From an uncultured Gemmatimonadales bacterium (lineage in GTDB: Bacteria > Gemmatimonadota > Gemmatimonadetes > Gemmatimonadales > GWC2-71-9): 64,000 nt of DNA. The notes beneath the pieces were generated by a model that searched no databases, was not told the origin of the DNA, and saw nothing but the letters and a program-made list of their open reading frames with translations. Below are positions 34,569-53,430 of this stretch, in pieces; the stretch's first letter is position 1; every line of letters begins with the position of its first letter. The position numbers were made by a program, and so were the translations under genes. The DNA lies in NCBI GenBank assembly GCA_963715665.1, contig OY970263.1, positions 253,514-317,513 of the forward strand, read 5' to 3'.

Positions 34569-35699
34569 ATGACTCTTCGGCGCCTGTTGGGAGTCGTGCT
34601 TTTCACCTGTGTGCGGGTATGGTCGCATCCTGGTCCTGTGTTTGGTCAGCAGGTATGGCGGCTGACGGAGGACCTGCGGATTGGTGGCGCTGATGCAGGC
34701 CCTGCCTCGTTCGCCGAGGTGGGCGATGTCGCGGTTGACGGGGCATCGGATATCTTTGTTCTGGACTATAAGGCTAGCGAGATTCGCGAATTCGATTCGG
34801 TCGGCCGCTTTGTACGCACGATTGGTCGCGTTGGTGCTGGCCCCGGCGAATACGGTCAGCGAGTCCATGGCATTCGTACCGCTCCCGACGGGCGGCTGTG
34901 GGTCAACGATGCGGAACACGGCCGTTTGGTGGTATTCGACTCGAACGGTTCGTTTTATCGACAGGTGTTGAGGCGCTACAACGGATTCAGTGCTGTATGG
35001 CATGCTCGATTTGACACGCTCGGTCGCCTCATGGAGGTTATCCCGTCGGTTGATTCCGCGGGATCTGCGGTACTGGCTGCCCTTCGATTGGACCCGAAGA
35101 CGTTAGCGTGGAGTGTACATGCGCTGCCGTGGTTCTCTGACTTCCAAGTGAGCTCGGATCGAAATCGCTGGCATTATCGCAATACTTCTGGGGGCGGTAC
35201 GATTGCAATACCGTTTGCACCTCAATCGTTGAGCGTCTTTGACCCGGCGGGGACTTGGTGGTGCAGCGCCGCGACATCATATCAGGTTCGGCTCGTTGAC
35301 ATAGACAATGGTGATGTCATCGCGAGCATTCGAAAGAAAGCTGCACGGTATGACATTGGACGGTCCGTGCGCGATTCCGCAATGACGGCGGTTGCGGCTA
35401 TCATGTCGTCGGTTCCCCGTGGTACGGTTGACTTGGATGCGATCCCGAAGACGTACCCGCCGGTCGGTGGGCTCGCCGTCGATGATAAACACGAGTTGTG
35501 GGTCACGTACGAAACGGAACGTGGTCCGAAGATCGATGTGTGGTCCCCGGACGGCACACGCATCGCGATGCTCAATGCACCGCCGGGGACTCTCGCCAAA
35601 TGGATCTTGGTGATTTCCCAAGGACGATACTACACGGTAGCGCTCGACCATGACGATGTGCCCTTCGTCGTTCGGTACCGGATTGACAGAGAGCACTGA
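34569..35699 (+). CDS. six-bladed beta-propeller family protein (GxGPGEF type), paralogue 1
   Basis: Signal peptide, repeated ...V.D..G.... strands and GRVGAGPGEY. Paralogous to 41161, 48946, 50883 and 52363. Its ATG is formed at the IS junction. Confidence 0.7.
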   Translation: MTLRRLLGVVLFTCVRVWSHPGPVFGQQVWRLTEDLRIGGADAGPASFAEVGDVAVDGASDIFVLDYKASEIREFDSVGRFVRTIGRVGAGPGEYGQRVHGIRTAPDGRLWVNDAEHGRLVVFDSNGSFYRQVLRRYNGFSAVWHARFDTLGRLMEVIPSVDSAGSAVLAALRLDPKTLAWSVHALPWFSDFQVSSDRNRWHYRNTSGGGTIAIPFAPQSLSVFDPAGTWWCSAATSYQVRLVDIDNGDVIASIRKKAARYDIGRSVRDSAMTAVAAIMSSVPRGTVDLDAIPKTYPPVGGLAVDDKHELWVTYETERGPKIDVWSPDGTRIAMLNAPPGTLAKWILVISQGRYYTVALDHDDVPFVVRYRIDREH

Positions 35700-35916
35700 T
35701 CATCGGGCGCTCTGCTGACACTGACGTCTCCCGTCAAGACCTGGCCGTCCAATGTGGAGGGGGTTCGTCCGGACGATTGAACAGATGCTGACGTTCCCCG
35801 CGACAGGTAGGGCAGTTCAGGAGGACAGCGGTTTGACGTGGGAAAGCGCATTGTGGCGCGGAACGATGCCAAGCTCGTCGATCGGAGCGCCGCTTTCGAT
35901 TGTCGGGTCGACCCTT

Positions 35917-36153
35917 CGCTCACCGGCCGCGCACAGGGTGCTAGTTCAGACGCCGATGACCGCAAAGTGACTGCCACGTCGGCGGTCTGACCGAGACTAG
36001 CCGCAGCGTCCGCCGGACCGCTTGCCCGACTCGCGCCGTGTCCCTTTATGTGTCTGCCTCGGCTCGCGCGCCGCTTGCACGGTCCAGTTCCGCCGAGGCA
36101 AGCCAGATCATCCAGGGACCAACCTTGGGCTTATCCGTGTCCGGGATAGGGCG
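35917..36153. repeat. conserved non-coding module downstream of the XRE gene (copy 1)
   Basis: Near-identical to 44247-44481. Contains a hairpin, GCCTCGGC...GCCGAGGC (36056-36099), and a longer imperfect palindrome, GCTAGTTCAGAC...GTCTGACCGAGACTAGC. Confidence 0.7.
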
Positions 36154-36402
36154 TCACCGGGCCACCGAGGGGACAGGCGGCGGTTCGCACCCCAGGAAGG
36201 CGGCGATTGCCGGGCGGGTCGCTGGCACCGGGTCCGTCTTGCCCAACTCCCAGTTCGTCACCGTGGCCGTGTCCACGCCGATCTGGGCCGCCACCTCTCG
36301 TTGCAATAGCTCAAGATCAATCCGCCGAGCCCTGATCTCGTCCCCTAAGTGTTTGATCTGCTTGGGGTAACCCGGCTTCGGGGTGGGTGCCGTCAGCCGC
36401 AA
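36154..36402 (-). CDS. XRE-family HTH protein, island-end copy 1
   Basis: 82 aa (LGDEIRARRIDLELLQREVAAQIGVDTATVTNWELG). The TTG start lies ~16 nt from the comM-fragment junction. Three paralogous copies are present. Confidence 0.7.
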   Translation of the reverse strand: MRLTAPTPKPGYPKQIKHLGDEIRARRIDLELLQREVAAQIGVDTATVTNWELGKTDPVPATRPAIAAFLGCEPPPVPSVAR

Positions 36403-36418
36403 CGGCAGTTTGGCAACA

Positions 36419-36904
36419 AATCCCTGTCCCTGCGGCTACCTGGGTGACGCGACGCGGCAGTGCAGCTGTTCGCCGATGGCGGTGCAGCGGTACCGCGCGA
36501 AGATCTCCGGGCCGCTGCTCGACCGGGTGGATATCCACCTGAGTGTCCCGCCGGTGGCCTACGACGATCTCACCGCGCGCAAGGCAGCGGAATCGAGTAC
36601 CGTGGTGCGGCAGCGGGTGGAAGCGGCGCGGGCGCGGCAGCTGGAGCGGTTCCGGGAAGTGCGCGGGGTGTATGCCAATGCGCACATGGGTCCCAGGGAG
36701 CTGGCCAGGTTCGTGCGGACCGATGCCGCGACCGATGCGGTGCTCAAGCAGGCGATCGTCAAGCTGGGGCTGTCGGCGCGGGCGTATCACCGCGTGCTCA
36801 AACTGGCGCGGACACTGGCGGATCTGGAGGGGGTGGCCGAGGTGGGGCCGCAGCATGTGGGGGAGGCGATCCAGTACCGGGTGCTGGATCGGGGGGAGGG
36901 GTGA
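36419..36904 (+). pseudogene. comM: comM 3' fragment (copy 1)
   Basis: Matches comM 30332-30817 from NPCPCGYLGDATRQCSC to the stop, with only a few amino-acid substitutions. It lacks the 5' two thirds. Confidence 0.9.
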
Positions 36905-36952
36905 GGGCCGGGGGCGACATAGAGGCCACCGATCAACGCTTGACTGTCGGGC

Positions 36953-37657
36953 GTGGGACGGTATCCGGCCCGATGCCCTTGGCTCCTGACAGTCGCTGTC
37001 GTGGCGGACCACGATTCATCGGGGAGCGCACGATTGTTTGGCCTCGGGGGCTGCGGTGTGCGCTATCTGGTAGACGTTGGGCAGGAGGGCGGGTGGGCTA
37101 GGTTGCGGCGGTTGGTCGCAGAATCCGGAGGTCGCACGACCACGGCCATCCTGGCCAAGGTCCTGCCGGCGTTGGGAGACACCACTGACGGTACGCGCCA
37201 TTTCTTCGACACGATGGTACGTTCTGCGCCCCGCATTTGGACCGCAACGTTGTTAGCCGGCGTCCTCAGGGTCCGAAGCAGCACCCTCAACTCGCGGTTT
37301 GCCCGTGCCGGACTGCCGACGCCGAAGACGTACCTGGCAATGATCCGGCTTGCGTACGCAGCAGCCCTCTTTGATGAGACCGAAGCGACAATCGCGGAGG
37401 TGGCCTATCGTCTCGGCTTCGCCTCGCCACAGTCCTTCGGGCGCCATCTCCGAATCGGTCTTGGAGTGACTGGGAGTGAGTTTCGGTGCCGGTTCCCATT
37501 CAACGTCATGCTTGATCGGTTCCTTGCGGCGTTGGTGCTGCCGAATGGGCCGGTCTGGACGGGCTTCGATCCATTGGCCGCGAGACGATTGGGGCGTGGC
37601 GCATCATCTGCGGCAGAAGTTCGAGGGAGTCGAGCCGGATTCGCTATCGATCGATGA
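36953..37657 (+). CDS. AraC-type HTH regulator
   Basis: The C-terminus (TIAEVAYRLGFASPQSFGRHLRIGLGVTGSEFR) is an AraC-family HTH. The N-terminal extent is uncertain. Confidence 0.6.
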   Translation: MGRYPARCPWLLTVAVVADHDSSGSARLFGLGGCGVRYLVDVGQEGGWARLRRLVAESGGRTTTAILAKVLPALGDTTDGTRHFFDTMVRSAPRIWTATLLAGVLRVRSSTLNSRFARAGLPTPKTYLAMIRLAYAAALFDETEATIAEVAYRLGFASPQSFGRHLRIGLGVTGSEFRCRFPFNVMLDRFLAALVLPNGPVWTGFDPLAARRLGRGASSAAEVRGSRAGFAIDR

Positions 37658-37668
37658 GTGAGGTCGTG

Positions 37669-37696
37669 AAAGCCAGCGACATTGGTCGCTGGCTTT
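37669..37696 (+). terminator. stem-loop downstream of the AraC-like gene
   Basis: AAAGCCAGCGAC-ATTG-GTCGCTGGCTTT is a perfect 12-bp stem followed by GTGG (weak U tract). Confidence 0.5.
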
Positions 37697-37752
37697 GTGG
37701 TGCAGTGCTCTCTCCGGGGGCGCTAGGCGGTCAAGGATATTGTGGAACGTTC

Positions 37753-37780
37753 TTGACTAGAACGATTACCGCATTATAAC
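37753..37780 (+). promoter_or_regulatory. sigma-70-like promoter candidate
   Basis: TTGACT, a 16-nt spacer, then TATAAC, in an AT-richer gap ~90 nt upstream of the XRE gene at 37872. Confidence 0.4.
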
Positions 37781-38693: not shown

Positions 38694-38778
38694 TGAACCA
38701 TCCTAGAGGATCGGTGTGAGCTGACCCCGGTTTGGAGGACACACCATTTAGGTGTTTTCCTTCATCTGGGAGGTCAGG

Positions 38779-39072
38779 ATGCGGACCAGGCGGCAGTTCA
38801 GTCGGGAGTATAAGCTCGAGGCAGTACGGTTGGTGCTGGAGCGCGGGGTGAGTATCGCCCAGGCGGCTCGCGATCTGGATATCCACGTGAATTCCCTGCG
38901 CAAATGGATTGACGACTTCAAGCAGGATCCGGCGCACGCGTTCCCCGGCGAGGGGCGCCAGAAGCCCGACGATGCGGAAGTGACCCGGCTGCGGCGCGAG
39001 GTGGCGCAGTTGCGGATGGAGCGTGACATCCTAAAAAAAGCCGCGGCGTACTTCGCCAAGGAAGCGACGTGA
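38779..39072 (+). CDS. IS3-family transposase OrfA
   Basis: RRQFSREYKLEAVRLVLERGVSIAQAARDLDIHVNSLRKW...ILKKAAAYFAKE. Confidence 0.85.
   Translation: MRTRRQFSREYKLEAVRLVLERGVSIAQAARDLDIHVNSLRKWIDDFKQDPAHAFPGEGRQKPDDAEVTRLRREVAQLRMERDILKKAAAYFAKEAT
39033..39040 (+). promoter_or_regulatory. programmed -1 ribosomal frameshift site (A AAA AAA G)
   Basis: A7G lies in the orfA zero frame (CTA AAA AAA GCC). The -1 frame reads straight into orfB (…VKFRFVAKYR). Confidence 0.75.
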
Positions 39073-39935
39073 AGTTCCGCTTCGTGGCGAAGTACCGGAC
39101 CACGTGGCCAGTGCGAGCGATCTGCCAGGCCTTGGCGGTCTCGCCAAGCGGCTTTTACGCCTGGCTTCGGCGCGGGCCAAGTGCGCGCGCCCGCCGGCAT
39201 GCCGCGCTGATGCCAGCGATCCGCACCGCGTTTCTGCAGAGCGATCGCACCTACGGCGCCCACAAGATCCTCCGCGATGTGCGCGAGCTGGGGCACGCGT
39301 GCGGTCGGCATCAGGTCGCCCGGCTGATGCGGGCCCAGGCGCTGCGGGCCCGTCCGCGGCGCCGCGCGGTGCCGGTGGATCGCGGGGTGCGGCCGAGCAC
39401 GGCGCCGGCGGCGAATCTGCTCGCTCGGCAATTCGTCGCCACGGCGCCGAATCAGAAATGGGTCGCCGACTTCACGTACATCTGGGCGGGCGAGGGCTGG
39501 CTCTACGTCGCGGTCGTGCTGGATCTCTTCTCGCGCCGTGTGGTGGGTTGGGCGATGCAGCCGGCCATGACGACGCAGCTCGTCACCGACGCCCTGATGA
39601 TGGCGGTATGGCGGCGCGGACACCCGCAGGCGGTGCTGCATCACTCGGACCGGGGGAGTCAGTATACGAGCGACGACTTCCAGCGCCTGCTCCGCGATCT
39701 GGGGGTGACGTGCAGTCTGAGTCGGGCGGGCAATGTGTGGGACAATTCGGTGATGGAGAGTTTCTTCTCGATCCTGAAGACCGAGCGCACCGCGCGTCGC
39801 CAGTATCGCACGCGGGCCGACGCCCGGGCCGACATCTTCGACTACATCGAGCGCTTCTACAATCCGGTCCGTCGGCATTCGACGCTCGGCTATCTCAGTC
39901 CGGTGATGTATGAACGACAGGCAGAAGTAGCTTAG
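39069..39935 (+). CDS. IS3-family transposase OrfB (DDE)
   Basis: WVADFTYIW...LHHSDRGSQYTS...GNVWDNSVMESFF is a DDE integrase-like catalytic core with no internal stops. Confidence 0.9.
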   Translation: MKFRFVAKYRTTWPVRAICQALAVSPSGFYAWLRRGPSARARRHAALMPAIRTAFLQSDRTYGAHKILRDVRELGHACGRHQVARLMRAQALRARPRRRAVPVDRGVRPSTAPAANLLARQFVATAPNQKWVADFTYIWAGEGWLYVAVVLDLFSRRVVGWAMQPAMTTQLVTDALMMAVWRRGHPQAVLHHSDRGSQYTSDDFQRLLRDLGVTCSLSRAGNVWDNSVMESFFSILKTERTARRQYRTRADARADIFDYIERFYNPVRRHSTLGYLSPVMYERQAEVA

Positions 39936-40022: not shown

Positions 40023-40247
40023 TTGCCTGGCTGCGACCCCGGACCCAACGCCTACTGTGTCTATGGCGATTACACCTCGTGTGAAGATTCGGGCGGTGAT
40101 GCATCAGTGTACTGTACACAGCTACAGCAGTACACGGAGTGCGCCGGGCAAGGTTCCTTCGACTACGGTGAAGAGTGCGACGATAACAGTGCGGCGTGCA
40201 ATGGCAACGGTACCCTTGCCATTTGCGACTGGGATCCTTGGTCCTGA
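40023..40247 (+). CDS. acidic Cys-rich small protein, family member 2 (5' end split by the IS)
   Basis: 8 Cys in 74 aa. The frame is open upstream to the IS end (39966) and encodes VALSAGVALLGARNKPAWA, a signal-peptide remnant. No good start codon remains on this side of the IS. Confidence 0.55.
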   Translation: MPGCDPGPNAYCVYGDYTSCEDSGGDASVYCTQLQQYTECAGQGSFDYGEECDDNSAACNGNGTLAICDWDPWS

Positions 40248-40387: not shown

Positions 40388-41065
40388 ATGAGAATTCAGA
40401 CGGCCATCGGTGAATGGGTGTCGAGGGGGTTCGTCCTGATTGCGGTCACATGCGCCGTCGTCTCGACGGTTGTGAGCCTCCGAGGGAGTGGATCGCACAG
40501 CATCAATCTTCGGGCTCCCAAGCCGAAGGTCGTCGCAGATTGGACCCAATATGAAACCGGGGGACACCGAATAGGCCCGCAAGCAGCCAAGCTGACGATT
40601 GTCGAGTTTGCTGATTTTGAGTGCCCTGTGTGCGGTCAATTTGAAAACCGAGTACTGCCGGGGTTGAGGCGAGAATTTCCGAACACAATATCGGTCGTAT
40701 TTCGCGAATGGCCGCTCGCCCAACACCACCTCGCGTATCCGGCCGCGCGCGCGGCTGAATGCGCGGGAGAGCAGGGTCGCTTCCAAGAGTATCACGATCT
40801 CCTGTACGCTAAGCAAGACTCCTTGGGCCTACTAAGCTTCGTGGACTTTGCCATCGAAGCCGGTATCCCCGATACGGCGCGATTTGCGGCTTGCAATGCA
40901 CGCCCCGGTGCTGTTAGTGCAATCGATGCCGATGTCGCCGCAGCAAGGCGTCTTGGCGGCCGCGGCACGCCGACGCTGATCGTAAACGGGCTGTTGCTTC
41001 TTGGACTGCCCGACAGCGCGGATCTTCATGATATAGTCGCGGCTCAACTGAAGAAGGCCGGCTGA
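40388..41065 (+). CDS. membrane-anchored DsbA-family thiol:disulfide oxidoreductase, paralogue 2
   Basis: GGAGG upstream, a TM helix and FADFECPVC. Collinear with 1086..1769. Confidence 0.8.
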   Translation: MRIQTAIGEWVSRGFVLIAVTCAVVSTVVSLRGSGSHSINLRAPKPKVVADWTQYETGGHRIGPQAAKLTIVEFADFECPVCGQFENRVLPGLRREFPNTISVVFREWPLAQHHLAYPAARAAECAGEQGRFQEYHDLLYAKQDSLGLLSFVDFAIEAGIPDTARFAACNARPGAVSAIDADVAAARRLGGRGTPTLIVNGLLLLGLPDSADLHDIVAAQLKKAG

Positions 41066-41160: not shown

Positions 41161-42336
41161 ATGATCGGTGTGCGGGCCACAGTTGCACTTATTGGACTGC
41201 CCTCTGTGGTGCCCATGCATGGTATTGCGCAGGTCGAGCGGCACTTTGCGCTTGTCCCCGTTCTCACCATCGATAGCCCCGTGGTTGACTCTGCCATCGC
41301 GGGAGGCGTCTTCCAATCCAATGGGCAAGTTGTCCTCTTTCAGCCGCAACGTGACCGCATCATCGTTTTTGACGCCTCAGGTCATCAACTGGCGGAAACG
41401 CCGGGTCGAGGCGAAGGGAAGGGTGAGTTCATACGACTCAGCGCGGGTGGTCCCGCACCCGACGGCTTCTGGGCTTATGATGCGCTTCGAACCAGAGTCA
41501 CGCTCTTTAGGCTCAATGGATCGGTGGTTCGAAGCGTTTCGGTGCCGACCTTTAAGGCCGCGCCTTCGGGGTCGGACGCATCATTCGACATCCCAAACGG
41601 ACCATTCACATACGTCTCGGCGATTCCGTGGACGGGCGAATACCTTGTGAGCAGCGTGGTTGGGCCCGAGGCCTCGGTCCCGCGGACGTGGCGGCGCCCA
41701 GCAGGTGCCGTTCAAATCCTGGTAAATGCGTCTTCCGGTGGGATGATTCGGAACGTGGTCGCCTGGACACCGTTCGTCCGGTGCGACACGACGGTGAACG
41801 TCGCAAATGATGAGCCGATCCACACACGGATGCCATTTTGTGTACAACCCATCAGGGCCGTTGGCCCCGAAGGTCACGTTACCGCAATAGTTCAGGCAAT
41901 AATGACCGGAAGGGATAGCGTGGATTTCGTCACTACCTCGCTTGCGCCTCGCGGTGATACGGTTTTTGTGAGTCACGTTAGGGCTCGTGCCGTGCCGGTC
42001 ACGCCCCAGGCAAGAGATAGTGAAGTGACGCTGATGGGTCGAGGCAAGACTGCGGCGGAGATCGCAGCGCTTCGCCAATTGTGTCCCGCGTCGTATTCTG
42101 GACTGAAGTCGGTGGTGGTCGGCGCAGATGGTTCCGTGTGGATCGAGCAAGTAGCGGCGCGAGGCCGGCGAACATGGATTGTGCTCGACTCGAGCGGCGT
42201 CGAATGGGGACGGTCGACGCTCGCGAGAGAAATTCGGCCCAAATTTGTGGGGCTTGCGACGATGTGGGGTATTGAGGAGCACCTCAATGGCGGGAGTGTG
42301 CCAGTGCACTGGGTGATTCACCGTTCCGGGCAGTAG
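41161..42336 (+). CDS. six-bladed beta-propeller family protein, paralogue 2
   Basis: Signal-like N-terminus, IIVFDASGHQLAETPGRGEGKGEF and repeated blade-like segments. Confidence 0.65.
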   Translation: MIGVRATVALIGLPSVVPMHGIAQVERHFALVPVLTIDSPVVDSAIAGGVFQSNGQVVLFQPQRDRIIVFDASGHQLAETPGRGEGKGEFIRLSAGGPAPDGFWAYDALRTRVTLFRLNGSVVRSVSVPTFKAAPSGSDASFDIPNGPFTYVSAIPWTGEYLVSSVVGPEASVPRTWRRPAGAVQILVNASSGGMIRNVVAWTPFVRCDTTVNVANDEPIHTRMPFCVQPIRAVGPEGHVTAIVQAIMTGRDSVDFVTTSLAPRGDTVFVSHVRARAVPVTPQARDSEVTLMGRGKTAAEIAALRQLCPASYSGLKSVVVGADGSVWIEQVAARGRRTWIVLDSSGVEWGRSTLAREIRPKFVGLATMWGIEEHLNGGSVPVHWVIHRSGQ

Positions 42337-42340
42337 TCGT

Positions 42341-44185
42341 ATGCCTATCGGAGCGGCGCTGCTGTATATGGCACTGGCGCTACAGGCTGCGCCGGCCCGC
42401 GGTGGGCAACCCAATAATCCGGTGATTGACCCCCGCGGCGGTTGGTTCCGGCAGGTCAGTTGGTCGGGGCCGAGTCGCCGCGCTGCACCATCGTGTGTCG
42501 GCGGCGGAATCAATCAGCCGGACATCGATGGGATGGGTACCGACTCGCTCCTGACGCTCCAGAACGACGGTGCGACCAGCGCGGAACGCAGCGGAGCGTG
42601 GCGGGAATGGTTGCTGGTCGGTTGCGTTCGCCTCCGACTGGCGTTTCCGCTGGGTGGCGCGGTCAGGAACGCGGAGATCCTCATGCCCCGCGGAACGTCG
42701 TGGCAGACCGGCGCACGGCGGGCCTTTCTCAAGGCTGCCTTCGCTGCCCCGAGGGAGGTCGAGGCGTGGCGATCCCTCGCGTTCGCAACACTGCTCAGCG
42801 TACCAGGGGACGTACCTGTCGTCCCGCGGATGCTGCCAGATTGGAGTTCTCAGATTGTTGATTATCCGCAGACCGGCGGCCGTGTGAATCTTGAGCCGGA
42901 GACGACCGCGATCTATGGTGCGGTACGGGCGGGTGTTGTCGATCCGCTCGTATTCCGGGCGTGTCTCGTGGGGATGATCTTCGAGGGGAATCTCGGCGGC
43001 GCTCGCGATTGCGGGACGCGCGCGTTGCTCGCGGGCCAGGATTCCACCTGGCAGCTCCTGCGCCTGGCGTGGCTGTCGTACCACGAGTCGGATTCCGTTG
43101 GCGGCGATGCGGAACTTGCCGCCGCGGTGGCGGCGGCGCACGATTCCGCGAGCCGGACGCAGATCGGATGGCTCTGGGAACGAGAGCATGATCCACATGC
43201 GGCGTATTCGCCGTTTGATATTGCATTGAGCGTGCGGCCGAATCTGGGAGCGGCAGGAACGGAACTCCTGCAGAAGCGCGAGTGGCTTGCCCTTCCGGAT
43301 TCCGAGCTGACCAGATGGGTAATTGGCCAACTTGGCACCAGTGAGGGAAAGGCAACATGGAGCGATCCGCGCGCCGTCGGTCTGCATTTCTTCATGTCGT
43401 TGACACTCGGAGATGGCGGCGACTTCCGGCCATGTATCCCTGACCGTGACACGGTGGCGGTCTGTGTGAGACGCGGCAAAGCCCTTCCCCGTGACCTTGT
43501 TGCCGCCCGTTGGCGGGGCTGGGATCCGACCACCGAGGCCCCGATTTCGCTGGTTCGCTTTGTCAGGCCGTCGCAAGGCCGCGGTGAATCTGATAGCATC
43601 GAGGTTCGCCAGTGGAATGGTCCTGGCGATTCCTTGCTGGATACGATTGTGGTCTCGTCATTCGCCGCCGGGCATGACGCGGCGAGCGGGAATGATCTGA
43701 TCGTGCGCCGTCTGCCGAACGAACGCCATTGGAGTGTCGTGTTGGCGCCAACGGCGTCAACTGACGCACCGATGACATTCCAGGAGAGCCAGGACGCGCT
43801 CGGTACGTCCGGCGCCATCGCGTTGTCGGATGTTGCGATCGGCCCGGCATCTGCTGTGGCACCGTCCAGCGCGGTTTGCGGTGAGACGTTCGTTGTAAGG
43901 CCGCGGATTGACCGGAACGCTGGCGCGACGGTGTGCTATCAGGTCCGCAGCAGACAAGTGCCGATCGCGATCGCAATTACTGAGACGGTGATGGCGACGA
44001 CGGGTGGGTCGCATCCGTCGGTCGCGATCAGGACGTCACGCACGCTTGGTGCGACGACAACGACCGTTGCAACAGCTGTCGATTTGCGACACTTGCGTCC
44101 GGGCTCATATCGGCTCGTCATCGAGATCGGCGAGGACCCGAAGTCTCCGGGAGCGCGGGCGATTACCAAGTTCGAATTGTACTGA
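42341..44185 (+). CDS. hypothetical secreted protein (614 aa), no recognised domain
   Basis: Starts 5 nt after the propeller stop and has a signal-like N-terminus. I recognised no family motif. Confidence 0.5.
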   Translation: MPIGAALLYMALALQAAPARGGQPNNPVIDPRGGWFRQVSWSGPSRRAAPSCVGGGINQPDIDGMGTDSLLTLQNDGATSAERSGAWREWLLVGCVRLRLAFPLGGAVRNAEILMPRGTSWQTGARRAFLKAAFAAPREVEAWRSLAFATLLSVPGDVPVVPRMLPDWSSQIVDYPQTGGRVNLEPETTAIYGAVRAGVVDPLVFRACLVGMIFEGNLGGARDCGTRALLAGQDSTWQLLRLAWLSYHESDSVGGDAELAAAVAAAHDSASRTQIGWLWEREHDPHAAYSPFDIALSVRPNLGAAGTELLQKREWLALPDSELTRWVIGQLGTSEGKATWSDPRAVGLHFFMSLTLGDGGDFRPCIPDRDTVAVCVRRGKALPRDLVAARWRGWDPTTEAPISLVRFVRPSQGRGESDSIEVRQWNGPGDSLLDTIVVSSFAAGHDAASGNDLIVRRLPNERHWSVVLAPTASTDAPMTFQESQDALGTSGAIALSDVAIGPASAVAPSSAVCGETFVVRPRIDRNAGATVCYQVRSRQVPIAIAITETVMATTGGSHPSVAIRTSRTLGATTTTVATAVDLRHLRPGSYRLVIEIGEDPKSPGARAITKFELY

Positions 44186-44746: not shown

Positions 44747-44796
44747 AATCCCTGTCCCTGCGGCTACCTCGGCGACGCGACGCGGCAGTGCAGCTG
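44747..44796 (+). repeat. 50-nt comM core fragment (att-like)
   Basis: AATCCCTGTCCCTGCGGCTACCTCGGCGACGCGACGCGGCAGTGCAGCTG matches comM 30332-30381 with 2 mismatches, after which homology stops. Confidence 0.8.
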
Positions 44797-44947
44797 CGAT
44801 TGGCTGTCCCTGGTCGGCGAGACTATTCTTACCCAGGCGTACTAGCTCGCCAATGGCGTGGAACTGCAATTCCGGTAAGGATGGTCGTCCTGGGAGAGGC
44901 TGTTGAGTAGGCCACAGCGTGCTGGGCATACCAATAGAGTAGTTGGG

Positions 44948-46060
44948 ATGGTGACAGCTGCGTTTTCAACGGCAGCAGTTGGGCTTCTCGTTTGGGTGTC
45001 CGGTTGTAGCCATTCGGCGCCATTTGTCACCGGCAACTATTTGACCGACAGCGTTCGCGTCTCCGGCCCCTTCGCCCTCTTGACCGACGACAAGGGAACA
45101 TCGGACCCGGCATGGAACGCGGACGGTCAGGGGTTCCTGTATCATTTCCTGATCCGGCCGCCGCTCATCAACGATGTCAAGATCGCAATCCAATTCGGCA
45201 CCAGAGTCCAGCTCGTGCTGAAGGACAGCATGGATGTCTGTGTCGGGATGTTTCCCGCCACTGGCGGCAATCGGCACTGGACGCTGTGCGACACCCGCGA
45301 TCTGCAGTGGGATTCTGTCAACGTGTTCGGCACCACAGCGATCGCACCCAATGGCAGGTTGCTCTACCAAGAAGCGGTCGGGCGTACCGATTATCCGCTG
45401 CCGGTCGACTACCACGTCGACTTTTGGCTGGCGGACACGTCGCGTCCGTTCACGCGTCGGCGCTTGTTGGCGCTGTATACCGACTCGTCCGGCATTCCGA
45501 GGTCGCCCCCGACCACCGTCAACTGGGTAGAGCAGGCGCAGTGGCTCGGAGCAGACTCGTTTCTGGTGATCGGACGGCACATCCTTCCCGACAGTGCCTT
45601 GACGACTCTTGGACTGGGAGTCGGCAGGATCACGGACGCCGGCGCCGACCTGCAGCTGATTCCCGGAACTGCGGCGATACAGCGTTACGCCATCGCGCCG
45701 GGCGGGAGGGCGGCAATCTTCACCGACGGCACGTTGCAGGTCTGGCGAGCGGCATTCGATGGCGGGATGCCGGTCCCCTTCGTCACCATCCCCGCCATGG
45801 CCCACCGATCGATTCTCGATATCGCATGCACGGGCAATGGATGCCGGCTGCTCGTGCAGGAGACGGTGGATACCGTGGAGGGGCGCAATGCGCTGCAGGT
45901 CGCACGCTCCTGGATCTGGTCGGTGTCGGCGGACGGGAGTGCGTTGCAGCAGCTGATGGAGTTGCCCGGCGGGCCACGCCTGGATCAGGCGGCGCTCGCC
46001 CCGGTGGCGAACAGCGTGGTTGGTCGTGCCAACGGCGAGCTGTATCTCATCCGGCCGTAA
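44948..46060 (+). CDS. lipoprotein with TolB/PD40-like beta-propeller repeats
   Basis: Lipobox (LVWVSGC) and PD40-like repeats (APNGRLLYQE, IAPGGRAAIF, SADGSALQQL). A different family from the GxGPGEF propellers. Confidence 0.55.
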   Translation: MVTAAFSTAAVGLLVWVSGCSHSAPFVTGNYLTDSVRVSGPFALLTDDKGTSDPAWNADGQGFLYHFLIRPPLINDVKIAIQFGTRVQLVLKDSMDVCVGMFPATGGNRHWTLCDTRDLQWDSVNVFGTTAIAPNGRLLYQEAVGRTDYPLPVDYHVDFWLADTSRPFTRRRLLALYTDSSGIPRSPPTTVNWVEQAQWLGADSFLVIGRHILPDSALTTLGLGVGRITDAGADLQLIPGTAAIQRYAIAPGGRAAIFTDGTLQVWRAAFDGGMPVPFVTIPAMAHRSILDIACTGNGCRLLVQETVDTVEGRNALQVARSWIWSVSADGSALQQLMELPGGPRLDQAALAPVANSVVGRANGELYLIRP

Positions 46061-46069
46061 ACGCACAGG

Positions 46070-46627
46070 TCAGGTGCCGGACTCGGCCTCGGTTACCGGG
46101 CGTGTCCCGGAATGGGGCTTTCGCCAGTCTTGACGATCTGACGGGGCACGGAATGTCGACTGGATGTGTCGGCGCGTCCCGATCGTCCATCCGCCTGCAC
46201 CGAAGGCACCGGGACGCGAAGAGACCTTGGGCGGAAGGATCGATGAGCGGGCTGATCTTTGGCGCGACCACAGCTGTCTCGGGACGGTCCCTCGCGTCCG
46301 GTGCCTCTCCCACGGGTTGAGCGGTTGACCCTTCAGGGTCAAGGACCACCCTTGGATAGCCGGAGCCCGGCGTACGGCCTCACTGGGCGTCGCGGGGGCG
46401 GGGAACGGGTCGTACCCCAGGAACGCGACGATCGCGGGATAGGCGGCCGTCATCGGGGTCGTGTGGCCCAACTCCCAGTTCGTCACCGTGGCCGTGTCCA
46501 CGCCGATCTGGGCCGCCACCTCTCGTTGCAGTAGCTCAAGATCAATCCGCCGAGCCCTGATCTCGTCCCCTAAGTGTTTGATCTGCTTGGGGTAACCCGG
46601 CTTCGGGGTGGGTGCCGTCAGCCGCAA
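46070..46627 (-). CDS. XRE-family HTH protein, island-end copy 3 (C-terminally extended ORF)
   Basis: The first ~75 aa are near-identical to copy 1. The remaining ~100 aa are not conserved and may be read-through of a lost stop. Confidence 0.55.
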   Translation of the reverse strand: MRLTAPTPKPGYPKQIKHLGDEIRARRIDLELLQREVAAQIGVDTATVTNWELGHTTPMTAAYPAIVAFLGYDPFPAPATPSEAVRRAPAIQGWSLTLKGQPLNPWERHRTRGTVPRQLWSRQRSARSSILPPKVSSRPGAFGAGGWTIGTRRHIQSTFRAPSDRQDWRKPHSGTRPVTEAESGT

Positions 46628-46643
46628 CGGCAGTTTGGCAACA

Positions 46644-47129
46644 AATCCCTGTCCCTGCGGCTACCTGGGTGACGCGACGCGGCAGTGCAGCTGTTCGCCG
46701 ATGGCGGTGCAGCGGTACCGCGCGAAGATCTCCGGGCCGTTGCTCGACCGGGTGGACATCCACCTGAGTGTCCCGCCGGTGGCCTACGACGATCTCACCG
46801 CGCGCAAGGCAGCGGAATCGAGTACCGTGGTGCGGCAGCGGGTGGAGGCGGCGCGGGCGCGGCAGCTGGAGCGGTTCCGGGAGGTGCGCGGGGTGTATGC
46901 CAATGCACACATGGGACCCAGGGAGTTGGCCAGGTTCGTGCGGACCGATGCCGCGACCGATGCGGTGCTGAAGCAGGCGATCGTCAAGCTGGGGCTGTCG
47001 GCGCGCGCGTATCACCGCGTGCTCAAACTGGCGCGGACGCTGGCGGATCTGGAGGGGGCGGCCGAGGTGGGGCCGCAGCATGTGGGGGAGGCGATCCAGT
47101 ACCGGGTGCTGGATCGGGGGGAGGGGTGA
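46644..47129 (+). pseudogene. comM: comM 3' fragment (copy 2)
   Basis: Matches comM 30332-30817. Homology continues downstream through the VNTR and the regulator to about 48060. Confidence 0.9.
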
Positions 47130-47228
47130 GGGCGGGGGCGGCACAGGGGCCACCGATCAACGCTTGACTGTCGGGCAACCTGGCTGTGAGGCCGGGTTGA
47201 CACGCGTTGCACCAGCCGGTACCGTTGA

Positions 47229-47273
47229 ACGCCACGCCACGCCACGCCACGCCACGCCACGCCACGCCACGCC
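47229..47273. repeat. pentanucleotide tandem repeat (ACGCC)x9
   Basis: Counted directly. The paralogous site at 30917-30946 has 6 units. Confidence 0.9.
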
Positions 47274-47290
47274 CCGCCGGCAGCGGTGTG

Positions 47291-48007
47291 ATGCGCTCGC
47301 GGGAGGTTGGTGGCGCTAAGCCGAGGCGTCGACCGATGACTGTGTGCTGCCTGCTACCCGGCGAACCGACGGCGATTGACGCGGGGCCGCCTGCACCGCG
47401 CCCGCTGGGCACAGTGTTCGTGGTTCCGGGCGGCGATGATGATCTGGCGCGAGTCGCCGAGTCCGTCGACCAGTGGCGCGCCAGTCCGTGGTGCCCGACG
47501 GTGCTGGTCGGCGCCGATAACGTTGCGCCTCGGACGCTCGACCTGCTGGTTCCCTCTGCAATGCATGTAACCCCGCTTCGCGGTGAGGTCTTGCAACCAG
47601 CCGCCGAAATCAGGAACGGGATCCGTCAGCGCCGGATTCCCGACGCCACCGATGTTGCCGCCTACATCGCGTTCAGGACGTCGCTCGGTCTGGCCAACCT
47701 GTTCTGCGACATACGCGATTCGGCGGGCGACGCCGACTTGCTGCGCCGATCGCTCCGGAGGTACGGAGCATGGCTGCCGCACGATTGGCGGGCACTCGGG
47801 AGTTGCCTCAAGCTGATCACACGGGCGGTCGCGGCCGGGCATGCGGAGGCCAGGGCGGCGGAGCTGGCGGGCGTGGACGTCAAGACGGTCTCGCGGTGGT
47901 GCCGTCGGTACTTCGGGCTGACCTGGCGGGAGCTCGTGGGAATGGACGCCTGGGAGGCGGCGCTGGAGGCCGCTCTGCGGGCGGGTGGATATGTAACAGA
48001 TCGCTGA
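47291..48007 (+). CDS. island-borne HTH regulator, copy 2
   Basis: Near-identical paralogue of 30958..31674, with the same start-codon uncertainty. Confidence 0.6.
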   Translation: MRSREVGGAKPRRRPMTVCCLLPGEPTAIDAGPPAPRPLGTVFVVPGGDDDLARVAESVDQWRASPWCPTVLVGADNVAPRTLDLLVPSAMHVTPLRGEVLQPAAEIRNGIRQRRIPDATDVAAYIAFRTSLGLANLFCDIRDSAGDADLLRRSLRRYGAWLPHDWRALGSCLKLITRAVAAGHAEARAAELAGVDVKTVSRWCRRYFGLTWRELVGMDAWEAALEAALRAGGYVTDR

Positions 48008-48122: not shown

Positions 48123-48279
48123 CTCGAGGTAGAACACGGGACATCTCGTGGCCCCGTGGGGCCATGATCTGCCGGTCGACCACAGGCCGGCGCAATAGGT
48201 CAAGGTTCCGGAGGAGCGGGCGTCGTCGGGTCAGAATGCCGTCGTCGGCTTCGTGGCGGAAACCCTATCAAGGAGGCAG

Positions 48280-48561
48280 ATGATGATTATCGTAAAGAGT
48301 GCTATCCGGTGTTTGGGAATGGCCGCGACGGTCGTTGCGCTCGCCGCCATTTCCGGTCAGTCGAGCCGACTGCGCGCCGAAACGGGCGCAACTTGCGATG
48401 CGTCGGACCCTTCGCATGCCTGCGTCAAGACGACCTTTGATCAAGGCGACCAGTGCTCTTCGCACTCGGGCTGCACAACATGTGAACCGCTCACCGGGTA
48501 CAATTGTGACCCCTATGGTAGCGGCGTATTCAAGGAAGATTGGAAGATGGACTGGGATTGA
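48280..48561 (+). CDS. secreted acidic Cys-rich small protein, family member 3
   Basis: AGGAGG at 48271-48276 before ATG 48280. 33-aa signal peptide (cleavage guessed after SRLRA) and a 60-aa mature part with 6 Cys. Confidence 0.65.
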   Translation: MMIIVKSAIRCLGMAATVVALAAISGQSSRLRAETGATCDASDPSHACVKTTFDQGDQCSSHSGCTTCEPLTGYNCDPYGSGVFKEDWKMDWD

Positions 48562-48945: not shown

Positions 48946-50124
48946 GTGGAAGAGGGATTGACCACGGTGGCGGATCAACGGGCGAGCACGTGCAGCGCGT
49001 GGGCAGAGGCAAGGGCTTGTTGTGACCCGTCGCCCGCATTGGCGTCGGCGAGCCGAAAGGCAACAGCCATTTCGGGTGTCATTCTTGTGCTTGGCCTGAT
49101 TGGTTGTGGGATGAGAGCCTCGGCCAGACTCCGGGACAGCTTGGATCCCACCGGTACTCGGCTGATACGGGATTCTGGTGAGGTCGATCTGGTCGGGGCG
49201 TTGGAGGTCACGGCGCCCATCATCGGAATGCCGCGTCACATGGCCACCAACGGCGCTTTCATGTGGCTGTACGATAGGGTCGGCGAACCCTATTTCCACC
49301 TTATCGATCTGTCTCACCATCGAATCGCGGTGTCATATGGCAGGTCTGGTGAGGGGCCAGGCGACTTCGCCTCAGTTGCCAGTCTGCAGGTCCGCCCCGG
49401 CGACACCTCGGGCGTGTGGGCGTACGATCCTCAGCTCCGGCGGCTGACACAACTTACGCCAAATCGAAACCGGGTTCGTGGCCGTACGATCACGGTCAGT
49501 GGCGGCCGGCGGCCGTACGATCTTCTGTGGCTCGATCGGGACCGGCTGTTGGGAATCAACGATTTGGACACGAACCGATTCCAGGTGTTCGACACATCCG
49601 GCAATCTGCTGAGGACGATGTCCGGGCCGCTGCTGGGATCTGATTCAATGCCATGGCAAGTACGTCGGGGTCTCTCAAGTGCGTTTGTTGCGTGTGTGGA
49701 TCCGGCAGGTGGGCGATTCGCCGTTCTATTTGTGGGGGCGGGGCGCATCGACATTCACGACACGTCGGGCGCGCTTGTCCGACACGCCGACGTGCCGTTT
49801 GTATCTGACGGTGAGTTCCATCGGGACCGGGACGGCCGCTACAGTTTCGGCACGCGATGGCGCTATTACGCCGATTGTGCTGCCACGACGCGATACCTAT
49901 ATGCCCTCTTTGCGGGCTATCGGACCGATGTTCCTGGTGCCTCTCGCGACGTCGCGGCGACACATGTCCAGGTGTTCGACTGGAACGGCGCCCTACGCGG
50001 GGAGTACCATCTTGACAGGCCAATGGGAAACATCGCAGTGGTGGGCGACACGCTGCTATACGCCGCCAGCATGATCACTCCGGGTGTCTATCGGTATCGG
50101 CTTCCAGTGCGCGATGGCCGTTGA
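48946..50124 (+). CDS. six-bladed beta-propeller family lipoprotein, paralogue 3
   Basis: Lipobox (LGLIGCG), GRSGEGPGDF and blade-like repeats (RFQVFDTSGNLL, RIDIHDTSGALV, HVQVFDWNGALR). Confidence 0.7.
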   Translation: MEEGLTTVADQRASTCSAWAEARACCDPSPALASASRKATAISGVILVLGLIGCGMRASARLRDSLDPTGTRLIRDSGEVDLVGALEVTAPIIGMPRHMATNGAFMWLYDRVGEPYFHLIDLSHHRIAVSYGRSGEGPGDFASVASLQVRPGDTSGVWAYDPQLRRLTQLTPNRNRVRGRTITVSGGRRPYDLLWLDRDRLLGINDLDTNRFQVFDTSGNLLRTMSGPLLGSDSMPWQVRRGLSSAFVACVDPAGGRFAVLFVGAGRIDIHDTSGALVRHADVPFVSDGEFHRDRDGRYSFGTRWRYYADCAATTRYLYALFAGYRTDVPGASRDVAATHVQVFDWNGALRGEYHLDRPMGNIAVVGDTLLYAASMITPGVYRYRLPVRDGR

Positions 50125-50184
50125 GCCCACAGGAGCGTATGGTTGCGGGGCTGTCGCATTACCCTCGTACGGAGTGAAAGAGCG

Positions 50185-50886
50185 ATGACGAACCTCAGGC
50201 GAGTTCTCGATTGGACGACGGTGATTCTATGCGTCGCCGCAGGCGCAATCGCGATACGGATCGTCAGCAATGGCATGCCTACGGTGCAGGCCGGCCCAGC
50301 CCAGGCGCTCCCCTCGGCGTACGCGTCTGAGAGCCAGGTTCCGATTGGTGATGACACGATGCTGGCTGGGCGGCTACGGTTGGGTGCCGATGGTGTGCCC
50401 GTCACAATCACCGTGTTCGCAAACTTCTACTGCAGCCATTGCGCGGATCTCGATCCGGTCTTGCGGGATCTCGTGACGCGGTATCCGGATCAGGTGGCGA
50501 TAGTCATAAAGCACTTCGTGCCGATCGCGATTCGTGCGCAATTGACAGCAGACCTCGCGGCCGAGTGTGCCGCCGATCAAGGCAAGTTCCCAGAATTCGA
50601 CCGTGCGTTCTTCGCGTACGGCGCCAAATCGGGCTTGCCAGACGAGTGGCGTCGGATCGGCGTGGACATCGGCATCCACGATCTTGCTCAATACGACCGA
50701 TGCGTGCGGTCGCAACGACATCTCGCGGCGGTGGTGCGAGACACGCGCGAGGCGGCCCGGCTTGGCGTCGATCGGACGCCAATCGAGTTCGTCAACGGGC
50801 GACGCATCGTCGGAGTTCAAGCGGAAGCCGTCTACGACACGGTCATCGCCGCGGCCCTGGATCGGGTCGGGCGGAACGCCACATGA
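50185..50886 (+). CDS. membrane-anchored DsbA-family oxidoreductase, paralogue 3
   Basis: TM helix (VILCVAAGAIAIRIV), FANFYCSHC (CxxC) and a DsbA-like helical insert. ATG 50185 has GGAG upstream. Confidence 0.75.
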   Translation: MTNLRRVLDWTTVILCVAAGAIAIRIVSNGMPTVQAGPAQALPSAYASESQVPIGDDTMLAGRLRLGADGVPVTITVFANFYCSHCADLDPVLRDLVTRYPDQVAIVIKHFVPIAIRAQLTADLAAECAADQGKFPEFDRAFFAYGAKSGLPDEWRRIGVDIGIHDLAQYDRCVRSQRHLAAVVRDTREAARLGVDRTPIEFVNGRRIVGVQAEAVYDTVIAAALDRVGRNAT

Positions 50887-52172
50887 ATCGCAGGCTCTCG
50901 ACGATGGTGGGACGTAGACGTGCCCGGGTGGCCGGGATCCGGACATCGCCGACCCTGGCGATGCGCACCACCTGCATGTCGATGTTTTGTATCGTGATTC
51001 CTACGGCGCTGGTGGCGCAAGACCTAGTCCGGCAAGACAGCGCTGGGGTGGAGATCGTGGTGAACCATGTTGCTGCCGACGGCATGGCGCCGGCGTTTGA
51101 GGTCGCCAAGGCGCCCGCTGCGGTATTCCGTTTGTCAACCGACGTTTCTGACATCCGTGGAGCGTTCCAATTTGCGGGCGGCGGAGTCTTGGTGGCTGAC
51201 GGTGCGTCGGAACGTGTAATCTATTTCGATTCAGCGGGCAAACGGCAATTTGTGGTAGGCAATGGACGATCAGCGGATGGTGCCGGGTCGTTCGATGCCA
51301 TAATGGGAGTGGTTGCGGCTGGCCCCGGAGCGGCTGCGGTATGGGACGCAGCGCGAAACCGTCTGACCGTACTGAATGCGAGAGGAACGGTGCTGGATCG
51401 CGAATATCTTGGTGCGCCGCCGATGGGGGCGACACCGATTGGCCCGATGCGCAGCCGATACCTGATAGTGGGGCAGCTTACGGCCGACCGGTACGTGGCT
51501 GCGGTAGAAGTGCCGTATCGCGACAAGACGACGACGCGAGTCGGATTCGACAGTGTCGCAATCGTGCTGTTGACCAAGCAAGGGCATCGGATCCGAACCG
51601 ATCAACACCTACGGTTCGGAGAATACTTCGAATTCAGGGATTCGGGTAATGTCGCAGCGATCAGCGGACCGGTACCTCTCGCCCATCTCGGCCATGTTGC
51701 AGTCAGTCAGAAGTCATGGTATCTGACACGCGGCACAACATGGGAAATCGAAAAGTGGTCGGCGAACGGAAGGCTTGTCTCGCTGTTCCGAATTACTCGA
51801 CCGATCGAGAGACTGCGGACGGACTTGTGGAGGCAGGTGAGTGCGGACCTACTCGATTCGGTGGCGCCGCCCCGGAGATCGCTGTATGAGCGAGCGCTGG
51901 CATGGATACCCCGGGAACAGACCGTGCCCGCATATGTGGGCTTGCTTGGCGACACCCATGGTCGTATTTGGGCGGAGTTGTGGACGAGGCCGAATCGTCC
52001 GTCGGAGTGGGACGTATTTCAGAGTGATGGCACGTATTTGGGATCTGTGGAAATGCCACCGTCTTGTCAAGTGGTGCAGGTCGGTGATAGCGCAATGTTA
52101 TGCGTCCGCGAGGGTGGCAACGACACGGCCGAACAGGTCAGGTCGTACGCTGTCCATCATGTCAGGAACTAG
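50883..52172 (+). CDS. six-bladed beta-propeller family protein, paralogue 4
   Basis: ATG 50883 overlaps the DsbA stop (ATGA). Signal-like segment (MFCIVIPTALVAQ) and VIYFDSAGKRQFVVGNGRSADGAGSF. Confidence 0.65.
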   Translation: MNRRLSTMVGRRRARVAGIRTSPTLAMRTTCMSMFCIVIPTALVAQDLVRQDSAGVEIVVNHVAADGMAPAFEVAKAPAAVFRLSTDVSDIRGAFQFAGGGVLVADGASERVIYFDSAGKRQFVVGNGRSADGAGSFDAIMGVVAAGPGAAAVWDAARNRLTVLNARGTVLDREYLGAPPMGATPIGPMRSRYLIVGQLTADRYVAAVEVPYRDKTTTRVGFDSVAIVLLTKQGHRIRTDQHLRFGEYFEFRDSGNVAAISGPVPLAHLGHVAVSQKSWYLTRGTTWEIEKWSANGRLVSLFRITRPIERLRTDLWRQVSADLLDSVAPPRRSLYERALAWIPREQTVPAYVGLLGDTHGRIWAELWTRPNRPSEWDVFQSDGTYLGSVEMPPSCQVVQVGDSAMLCVREGGNDTAEQVRSYAVHHVRN

Positions 52173-52362
52173 CGCGTTGGTGTCGGATCACGCTGCCCCT
52201 TCCGGAGCCTCGGTTGGTCAAGTCCTCAAGACTGGAAGTCGATCCTGGCGAGTAGCGCCACCCCTCCAACGCCGCCGGTGCCGCACCAGCCAGCGGTCGC
52301 TACGGCCCCTCGCTTCTCCTCCCGCCAATTGACCCGTACGGTACCGCGGCGTACCGTACCCG

Positions 52363-53430
52363 ATGCGAAAGCAGCTCTTCCGGGGCCTCGTCAGCACCGT
52401 TGCGCCGCTAGTCGTCGGCTGCCACCGCGCCACTCCGACCGACGCTCAGGCGTTTCAGCCATTCGACGCAGCCCGCTGTGATACCGCCGTGGCTTCCGGA
52501 CGGTCCGAAGACGGAATGATCGGGATGGCCGCCCCGGGGCCCCACGGCGTCCTGGCATGGAGCGCCGGCAGGCGCCCCGCGACGATCCACCTCGACGCCG
52601 GCGGACATGACGCCACGGCGGGCCGTAACGGTGAGGGGCCGGGCGAATTCCGTTCGATCGGTGTCGCGTGGTGGGTCGGTGATACGCTCTGGGTGAGCGA
52701 CTATCGGCTGGGCCGGTCCGTTGCCTTTACCGCCGACGGACGGTACGCCGGCACGCTGACGCCACCGATGCCGGGAAGCTGGGTCCGCACCGCGTCCGGA
52801 CGATCGGTGGGCGTCGCGCAGACATCCGTGTCCATCCCCGACGTCCGGATCCTGGCGTTCGGTCCGGATCAACGACTCGATACGCTCGCCGACGTCGCAG
52901 CACCCGACACATTTCGCGCCGGCGATCCGCACAACGCCGGGCCGTTCACGATGCGGCTCGCCCTGGCGGCATGGACGCCGGACGGAGCGCGTTGGTGCGT
53001 CATCGTCCCGGGGCAGGCATCCGACCTGCACCTCCAGTGCCTGGATCCGGCCGGTAATGCGGTACTCGACACCACCGTAACGCTTCCGCCGAGGGCGGTC
53101 ACACAGGAGGAGTACGACACAGTCATGGCCTCGATGGTCAAGGGGCTCGATCCCATCGCCGCGGCGAGGCTGCGGGCCGATACCCCGAGGCCGCCCTTCT
53201 TTGCCGCGGCGTTCGAGGCCCTGATGGACAACCACGATCGCTTCTGGGTTCTCCGGTCCACCCTCGGCGAACGTCCCGAGGTCTGGACCGAGTTGTCACC
53301 GACCGGCGCGGTGGTCCGTACAATGACCCTGCCGGCAGCGATGCACCTGCTCGCCGCGCGCGACGATCTCCTCTATCTCCGGGCGGCGCAGGATGACGGG
53401 TTCCAGACGTTGCTGCGGTGCCAGCTGTGA
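52363..53430 (+). CDS. six-bladed beta-propeller family lipoprotein, paralogue 5
   Basis: Lipobox (PLVVGC) and GRNGEGPGEFRSI. It has the same tail pattern as the other paralogues. Confidence 0.65.
   Translation: MRKQLFRGLVSTVAPLVVGCHRATPTDAQAFQPFDAARCDTAVASGRSEDGMIGMAAPGPHGVLAWSAGRRPATIHLDAGGHDATAGRNGEGPGEFRSIGVAWWVGDTLWVSDYRLGRSVAFTADGRYAGTLTPPMPGSWVRTASGRSVGVAQTSVSIPDVRILAFGPDQRLDTLADVAAPDTFRAGDPHNAGPFTMRLALAAWTPDGARWCVIVPGQASDLHLQCLDPAGNAVLDTTVTLPPRAVTQEEYDTVMASMVKGLDPIAAARLRADTPRPPFFAAAFEALMDNHDRFWVLRSTLGERPEVWTELSPTGAVVRTMTLPAAMHLLAARDDLLYLRAAQDDGFQTLLRCQL

Follow-up and report, generated by a model that had tools for sequence, protein, structure and literature searches.

The window analysed here, a stretch of 64,000 nucleotides from an uncultured Gemmatimonadales bacterium (GenBank assembly GCA_963715665.1, contig OY970263.1, positions 253,514 to 317,513), carries within 19 kb five genes for exported beta-propeller proteins, named below after the first positions of their open reading frames (ORFs): 34569, 41161, 48946, 50883 and 52363. 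Four of these genes ride units of low G+C content at third codon positions (GC3) behind the comM gene, and the fifth, 52363, is a conserved core gene beside the site. The cluster is made up of separate units accreted behind comM plus one core gene, and most of its genes arrived on mobile cassettes. The best explanation overall, to which a probability of roughly 0.55 may be assigned, is that of a mobile-unit cluster of exported NHL propellers, which are putative non-catalytic peptide binders in cassettes.

Homology, fold and family size of the propellers

A previous reading of the window, made by a model from the letters and a list of ORFs (hereafter the sequence-only reading), had described the five ORFs as a local expansion of exported six-bladed propeller proteins with a GxGPGEF motif. 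The ORFs are present and open at the coordinates that it gave, with translations as described, and the stretch FD..G...G.G.G[ED][FY] is found in all five where it had been placed, namely as FDSVGRFVRTIGRVGAGPGEY in 34569, FDASGHQLAETPGRGEGKGEF in 41161, GRSGEGPGDF in 48946, FDSAGKRQFVVGNGRSADGAGSF in 50883 and GRNGEGPGEF in 52363. Each of the five also has the N-terminal export signal that had been proposed. Judged by eye, the signals of 34569, 41161 and 50883 are of the signal-peptidase-I type, and the clear lipoproteins, of which two or three had been suggested, are two (52363 with LVVGC and 48946 with LIGC). In 48946 the lipoprotein signal comes after an internal TTG at 49039, which is probably the start, the GTG at 48946 probably lying too far upstream.

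Pairwise BLAST matches among the five ORFs are weak (25–41% identity over 42–137 residues), which agrees with the view of the sequence-only reading that they are diverged rather than recent copies. In an iterated hidden Markov model search of the ORFs of the genome, which is one contig of 3.33 Mb, the five ORFs fall into one family (E 1e-19 to 1e-170), most members of which align over their full length. The five ORFs are homologous along their entire length. The most divergent subfamily, that of 48946 (P48), is joined to the main family by a profile–profile alignment (hhalign, P48 profile A3 against main-family profile A2) with 99% probability and E 2e-18 over 286 columns.

The A2 profile, which comprises 22 paralogues, was searched against PDB sequences. 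Its positions 26–118 match every NHL blade of TRIM71, Thin, TRIM2/3 and Brat (E 4e-49 to 8e-15), and therefore GxGPGEF is an ordinary NHL-repeat signature rather than a pocket specific to the family. The motif is best kept in the first two or three blades. The profile also matches BF0058 (4raa), PAL (E 3e-8) and, weakly, SOQ1 (E 0.0016).

The AlphaFold2 models of 41161 (pLDDT 83.6, pTM 0.83) and 48946 (pLDDT 88.2, pTM 0.89) are both all-beta, with 26–29 strands, and that of 41161 has a two-helix insert at residues 261–286. The best Foldseek matches of both models are six-bladed NHL propellers, with a template modelling (TM) score for Brat of 0.72–0.75 of target, and further matches are PAL, a DUF4221 protein (3s9j), BF0058, virginiamycin B (Vgb) lyase and Drp35. 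The six-bladed fold proposed earlier for all five proteins is thus upheld, by the models for 41161 and 48946 and by full-length alignment for the other three.

The curated gathering thresholds of Pfam are passed by two of the five, 34569 (DUF5128, 39.9 bits against a cut-off of 22.9; NHL, 24.9 bits against 20) and 48946 (TolB_like, 36.6 bits against 29.2), and no match was obtained for 41161, 50883 or 52363. A relative of 52363 at 28% identity has PF17170. ORF 41161 is almost an orphan, for which a word-based search of 5.8 billion proteins returned one weak relative. Taken together, these matches suggest that the five genes belong to the DUF5128/TolB_like corner of the NHL superfamily.

The genome contains about 36 members of the family at 25 loci. 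With this number in 3.33 Mb, about 0.2 copies are expected per 19 kb, and five are observed; the five copies form a real cluster. In a maximum-likelihood tree of the 36 copies, however, the window genes are dispersed. ORF 34569 is sister to the copy at genome position 1554211 and 50883 to that at 675312 (SH-aLRT 96 each), while 48946 is sister to 674226 (SH-aLRT 88) inside a three-member P48 clade with 468303 (SH-aLRT 100), and 41161 and 52363 are part of a loose group that also contains 2690902, 1578418, 182166 and 3218262. The nearest pairs are merely 25–29% identical (42–44% inside P48). Because the tree disperses the five genes and the closest relative of each lies elsewhere, local tandem duplication is ruled out, and the local paralogue expansion of the sequence-only reading is not borne out.

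Outside this genome, each of the 18 genomes in the first sample of the genus has the family (2 to at least 64 matches per genome), and in a sample of the phylum full-length matches occur in 62 of 121 genomes, often as tandem runs. A search of a representative library returned mostly giant multi-NHL proteins, together with three full-length single-stretch matches. The relatives are named 'hypothetical protein' or, in some Gemmatimonadaceae, '6-bladed beta-propeller' at NCBI. It appears that this is a multigene family across the class Gemmatimonadetes whose members are Sec-exported, some of them as lipoproteins.

The array of units behind comM

The window has about 69% G+C, and both G+C and GC3 fall between 30.8 and 52.3 kb, where GC3 is 0.6–0.7 against about 0.9 in the flanks. 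Copies of the comM 3' end recur in this region (Table 1), and before each of them there is a small conserved gene of the XRE type on the minus strand. After copies 1 and 3 come genes for helix-turn-helix (HTH) proteins of 259 and 266 amino acids, respectively, the former, at 30895-31674, being 90% identical to the latter. Because the comM 3' copies recur together with the XRE-type and HTH genes, the region is a succession of units behind comM. Homologues of the HTH protein also precede cassettes at genome positions 466677, 678157 and 681357 and in G001, a congeneric genome that is the nearest relative.

The units differ in cargo. Unit 1 carries 34569, with neither a DsbA gene nor a peptide gene, and unit 2 carries a peptide gene split by an insertion sequence (IS), a DsbA gene, 41161 and a 614-amino-acid orphan. 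A short unit with the lipoprotein gene 44903-46060 is followed by the last unit, in the order HTH protein, peptide, 48946, DsbA and 50883. The right end of an IS3-family element (33256-34571) supplies or abuts the ATG of 34569, and therefore the native promoter of this gene has been displaced. A fourth comM 3' copy lies 175 kb off at genome position C1:465957-466484, and there (C1:465957-470043) it is followed by an HTH homologue (466677), a 7-Cys peptide (467674), a P48 propeller (468303) and a DsbA gene (469252), a cassette of the same type as the last unit of the window.

In G001 this site contains three comM 3' copies, and its units are of the same kinds but differ greatly in cargo. The only propeller of the window cluster that is kept there as an orthologue is 52363, which has 82% protein and 86% DNA identity and the same place before prsW; it is also present in three further genomes at 68–72% DNA identity. 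The last unit is syntenic in G001, yet the identity of its proteins to those of the window is as low as 46%, 34% and 29%, against 70% for the HTH protein flanking it. The G001 propeller pair is closer (67–68%) to a peptide-less pair of the window genome, 674226/675312. Cassettes thus move, or are exchanged, between loci and strains. No recombinase was found.

The ratio of nonsynonymous to synonymous substitution rates (dN/dS) of 52363 against its G001 orthologue is 0.30, compared with 0.15 and 0.20 for two neighbouring core genes. At this value positive selection on the gene as a whole is not apparent, and its constraint is mildly relaxed; the diversifying role in immunity, as receptor or as modifier that the sequence-only reading had suggested stays hypothetical. 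This is the sole clean pair, since dN/dS values among the paralogues and against the positional counterparts in G001 are unusable, with dS above 1.1 or undefined (saturated).

Several other observations were made in the array. An (ACGCC)n repeat is present at 30917-30957 (about 8 copies) and at 47229-47279 (about 11 copies), in the gap from the stop of comM (or of its copy) to the start of the 259/266-amino-acid HTH gene, and also at the homologous position in G001; its translation is a repeated ATPRH, and it could be a slippage-prone switch of the downstream genes. The 614-amino-acid orphan ORF (42341-44185) begins 5 nt past the stop of 41161, has no Pfam match and is unrelated to the propellers. 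The 402-amino-acid ORF at 45112-46320 is probably no gene, and the overlapping frame 44903-46060 shows the coding GC3 pattern; this frame has a lipoprotein signal (VSGC), lies outside the propeller family and has a paralogue at genome position 177856-179253, adjoining another propeller cluster. The large orphan ORFs 31750, 42341 and 44903 were tested as hidden members of the propeller family and do not belong to it.

Table 1. Positions of the propeller genes, cassette genes and array elements in the window
Feature	Position	Strand	Remarks
Propeller gene 1 (34569)	34569..35699	+	376 amino acids; signal-peptidase-I type; first unit behind comM
Propeller gene 2 (41161)	41161..42336	+	391 amino acids; DsbA-like gene immediately upstream
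Propeller gene 3 (48946)	49039..50124	+	Lipoprotein, LIGC lipobox; P48 subfamily
Propeller gene 4 (50883)	50883..52172	+	Family member by iterated search; start overlaps stop codon of DsbA-like gene (ATGA)
Propeller gene 5 (52363)	52363..53430	+	Lipoprotein (LVVGC); core gene, not unit cargo; GC3 0.80
Cys-rich peptide gene, 3' part	40023..40247	+	Cut by IS3 element 38752-39935 (transposase domains)
DsbA-like thioredoxin-fold gene, cassette 2	40388..41065	+	Pfam Thioredoxin_4 1.7e-22, DSBA 1e-12
Exported acidic 6-Cys peptide gene	48253..48561	+	First gene of cassette 3; from translation
DsbA-like gene, cassette 3	50143..50886	+	Between propellers 3 and 4; Thioredoxin_4 5.4e-16, DSBA 6.6e-13
comM/yifB, full-length	29285..30817	+	Mg-chelatase-like ATPase (Pfam); array starts past its stop codon
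comM 3' end, second copy	36383..36904	+	Last ~540 bp; 96% identical
comM 3' remnant	44747-44796		50 nt
comM 3' end, third copy	46608..47129	+	96% identical
HTH protein, first gene of unit 3	47207..48007	+	266 amino acids; weak C-terminal HTH, below Pfam cut-off
IS3-family element	33256..34571	+	33-nt inverted ends; HTH_Tnp_1 and rve domains; orfB looks truncated

Peptide cassettes and the proposed role of the propellers

About a third of the family, including 41161, 48946 and 50883, lies in compact cassettes with peptide and DsbA genes, and 12 of the 36 propellers have a DsbA-like gene within 1.5 kb. Conversely, 9 of the 16 DsbA-like genes of the genome are within 1.5 kb of a propeller gene; with random placement (5000 trials) the mean is 0.78 and the maximum 6. 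Peptide genes were scanned for with an author-made filter, which combines a signal-like hydrophobic N-terminus, at least 4 Cys and a net acidic mature part. The scan gave 11 small genes adjoining a DsbA gene, or 12 with the IS-split one. All 12 of these acidic Cys-rich peptide genes adjoin a DsbA gene, and 8 also adjoin a propeller gene. The link of the propellers to small Cys-rich peptides and DsbA, which the sequence-only reading had put forward, is therefore non-random, but it does not extend to the two thirds of the family that have neither.

The association is most regular in the P48 subfamily, which is present in 20 of 51 other genus genomes at no more than 49% identity to 48946. Among the 30 P48 loci examined, the order peptide, P48 propeller, DsbA, second propeller is found complete at 7 loci in 6 genomes and in part at 3 more, and the genes of these four-gene loci abut or overlap. 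Peptides homologous to that at 48253..48561 lie upstream of P48-type propellers at 8 further loci, in this genome and in others of the genus, and the peptides of P48 loci have one six-Cys framework, C..SD..H.C ... C...C..C......CDP..SG. At the more distant P48 genes just the P48–propeller pair is retained. The type of peptide tracks the propeller clade, with 6–7-Cys peptides beside P48 and 6–10-Cys peptides beside the 41161 clade. Three cassette peptides gave no relevant Pfam match at E values up to 5, NVEALA (PF14055) and Me-amine-dh_L included.

Two side observations concern small exported proteins and transport. A small exported protein with a HHGCCCDCCSCC stretch is encoded at C1:186012-186401, 1.8 kb from a propeller gene and away from DsbA; it resembles a metal-binding protein more than it does a cassette peptide. 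Two propeller–peptide–DsbA cassettes (C1:2101120-2107012 and 2426087-2435715) adjoin PadR genes and genes for 900-amino-acid duplicated FtsX/MacB-type permeases. These permeases might export the cassette peptide, but the adjacency may also be due to chance.

The propellers are best seen as putative periplasmic or outer-membrane-anchored, non-catalytic binding modules. In the mechanism proposed, the cassette peptide would be exported and oxidised by its dedicated DsbA, and the propeller would then bind the oxidised, co-encoded peptide in the periplasm as a holder, carrier or immunity-like partner. The DsbA may act on the P48 lipoprotein as well, by forming its invariant Cys pair, and propellers without a peptide gene would be stand-alone binders.

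Several points weigh against this interpretation. Both AlphaFold2 models were built on shallow alignments (22 sequences), and the peptide filter may miss or over-call genes. Four of the 12 peptide–DsbA pairs have no propeller gene, and 24 of the 36 propellers have no DsbA gene and no peptide gene in their vicinity, from which it follows that the general role of the family cannot depend on peptides. Moreover, P48 retains an invariant His and an invariant Tyr, so that an enzymatic activity would be possible.

The conserved residues bear directly on this last point. In the alignment of the main family only G, G, D, R, W and G are near-invariant; near-invariant His, Glu and Cys were looked for in it and none was found. 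The invariant positions of P48 are its repeated D..N.R..FD..G blade motifs, the Cys pair C197/C258, His65 and Tyr255 (mature numbering). PAL, virginiamycin B lyase and Drp35 are all six-bladed propellers, and PAL has a three-His zinc site plus a catalytic Tyr and Arg in the central channel. That the window propellers are likewise enzymes, such as a lyase, amidase or lactonase processing the cassette peptide, is considered improbable. Such a function would be in line with the match of PAL to the family profile, with PAL (3fvz) ranking second among the structural matches of the 48946 model (E 6e-12, TM 0.61), with Vgb lyase and Drp35 among the matches of the 41161 model, and with His65 and Tyr255. 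However, despite this likeness of fold the proteins do not qualify as PAL members, since P48 has a single invariant His in place of the three of the PAL zinc site and the main family has no near-invariant His at all. The invariant Arg and Asp look structural, because they are located in the repeated blade motif, and divergence to 15–25% identity is easier to reconcile with a binding scaffold than with a fixed active site. The lack of a conserved catalytic signature rules out a three-His zinc site of the PAL type and disfavours a fixed active site, although P48 may have one.

The proximity of propeller and DsbA genes, far above chance and in some cases with overlapping coding sequences, could also be accounted for if the propeller were the target-recruiting partner of the adjoining DsbA, in the manner of an unfused NHLRC2 or SOQ1, with disulfides of the peptide or of envelope clients being oxidised or reshuffled. 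The weak match of SOQ1 to the family profile would fit such an arrangement. This explanation is nevertheless held to be unlikely, because the thioredoxin-fold genes here belong to the DsbA/Thioredoxin_4 type, whereas NHLRC2 has the TlpA-like type, such a neighbour is lacking for two thirds of the propellers, and the DsbA genes are more closely associated with the peptides (12 of 12) than with the propellers (9 of 16 DsbA genes).

It is equally doubtful that the co-location has no functional meaning, the propellers being general envelope binders or sensors that travel together with the other genes on mobile units, or that stand beside DsbA for the sake of their own disulfide. The 24 copies that stand alone, the core gene 52363 without a cassette of its own and the invariant Cys pair of P48 are all consistent with this, as is the presence at the same loci of other multi-copy families (PadR with the duplicated FtsX-type permeases, and Ser/Thr kinases). 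Against it stand the four-gene order with abutting or overlapping genes, which is kept in several genomes at just 30–49% protein identity, and the correspondence between peptide type and propeller clade.

A more specific proposal, speculative and unlikely as it stands, is that the cassettes represent a new periplasmic peptide system, in which a Sec-exported, DsbA-oxidised acidic mini-protein would act as toxin or signal and the matching propeller or propellers as its specific partner in immunity or as its receptor. The propellers without a peptide, about two dozen in number, would then form a repertoire of orphan immunity or receptor genes, and exchange between strains would take place at hot spots like the comM end.

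Gemmatimonadetes are abundant soil bacteria of which few genes have been studied. In the literature searched, no paper on this propeller family or its cassette was found; the fold and the superfamily are known, and the class-wide expansion and the peptide–DsbA–propeller cassette are not described there. One uncharacterised exported family takes up about 1% of the genes of a 3.3-Mb genome, and for a third of its members there are private DsbA enzymes and disulfide-rich mini-proteins, encoded with them in cassettes that vary from one close relative to the next. Should the propellers be specific partners of the peptides, they would be part of an extensive envelope system, so far undescribed, that serves competition or signalling; if they are not, the cluster is still a clear case of an apparent 'local expansion' built by the accretion of mobile units.

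Comparison with known systems

The closest likeness is to the NHL propellers (PF01436; TRIM71/LIN-41, Brat, Thin and TRIM2/3), every blade of which is matched by the motif region ..FD..G.....G..G.GPGEF....v.vD....i.V.D..N.R...F, and on whose domains both models superpose best (TM up to 0.75 of target). The window family differs in that its members are exported bacterial envelope proteins of 340–400 amino acids with insertions, in which only the first two or three blades retain the sequence motif, whereas the eukaryotic examples are cytoplasmic RNA- or protein-binding domains.

Among bacterial proteins, the Bacteroidota families DUF5128 (PF17170), TolB_like (PF15869) and DUF4221 are the nearest in that two window genes pass Pfam thresholds for this group, and 3s9j (BVU_1028) and 4raa (BF0058) are among the top structural and profile matches. 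The Bacteroidota propellers and the window family are alike multi-copy and exported or lipoproteins. In contrast, three of the five window genes are without a Pfam match, and we know of no DsbA partner for the Bacteroidota families.

The composition of the cassettes recalls the methylamine dehydrogenase set, which consists of the Cys-rich light chain MauA, the propeller heavy chain MauB, by which MauA is held, and the thioredoxin-like MauD. In both cases a small disulfide-rich exported subunit, a larger propeller subunit and a dedicated thioredoxin-fold helper are encoded together. The heavy chain, however, is seven-bladed, whereas both models here best match six-bladed NHL domains, and the window peptides have half the size of the light chain and no match to Me-amine-dh_L. 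A MauG-like haem gene is not among the recurrent neighbour families, although no search aimed at MauG was made.

Finally, a thioredoxin-like domain is joined to an NHL propeller in the plant protein SOQ1 (10.1101/2021.03.16.435614) and in NHLRC2, whose conserved surface is the cleft that separates the thioredoxin-like and propeller domains (PMC6107167). The one-polypeptide architecture of these proteins is not found here, where the genes are separate, the thioredoxin-fold partner is of the DsbA type, a Cys-rich peptide is co-encoded and most members have no thioredoxin partner. Nevertheless, NHLRC2 and SOQ1 combine a thioredoxin-fold module with an NHL propeller in an oxidising compartment, as do the cassettes described here.

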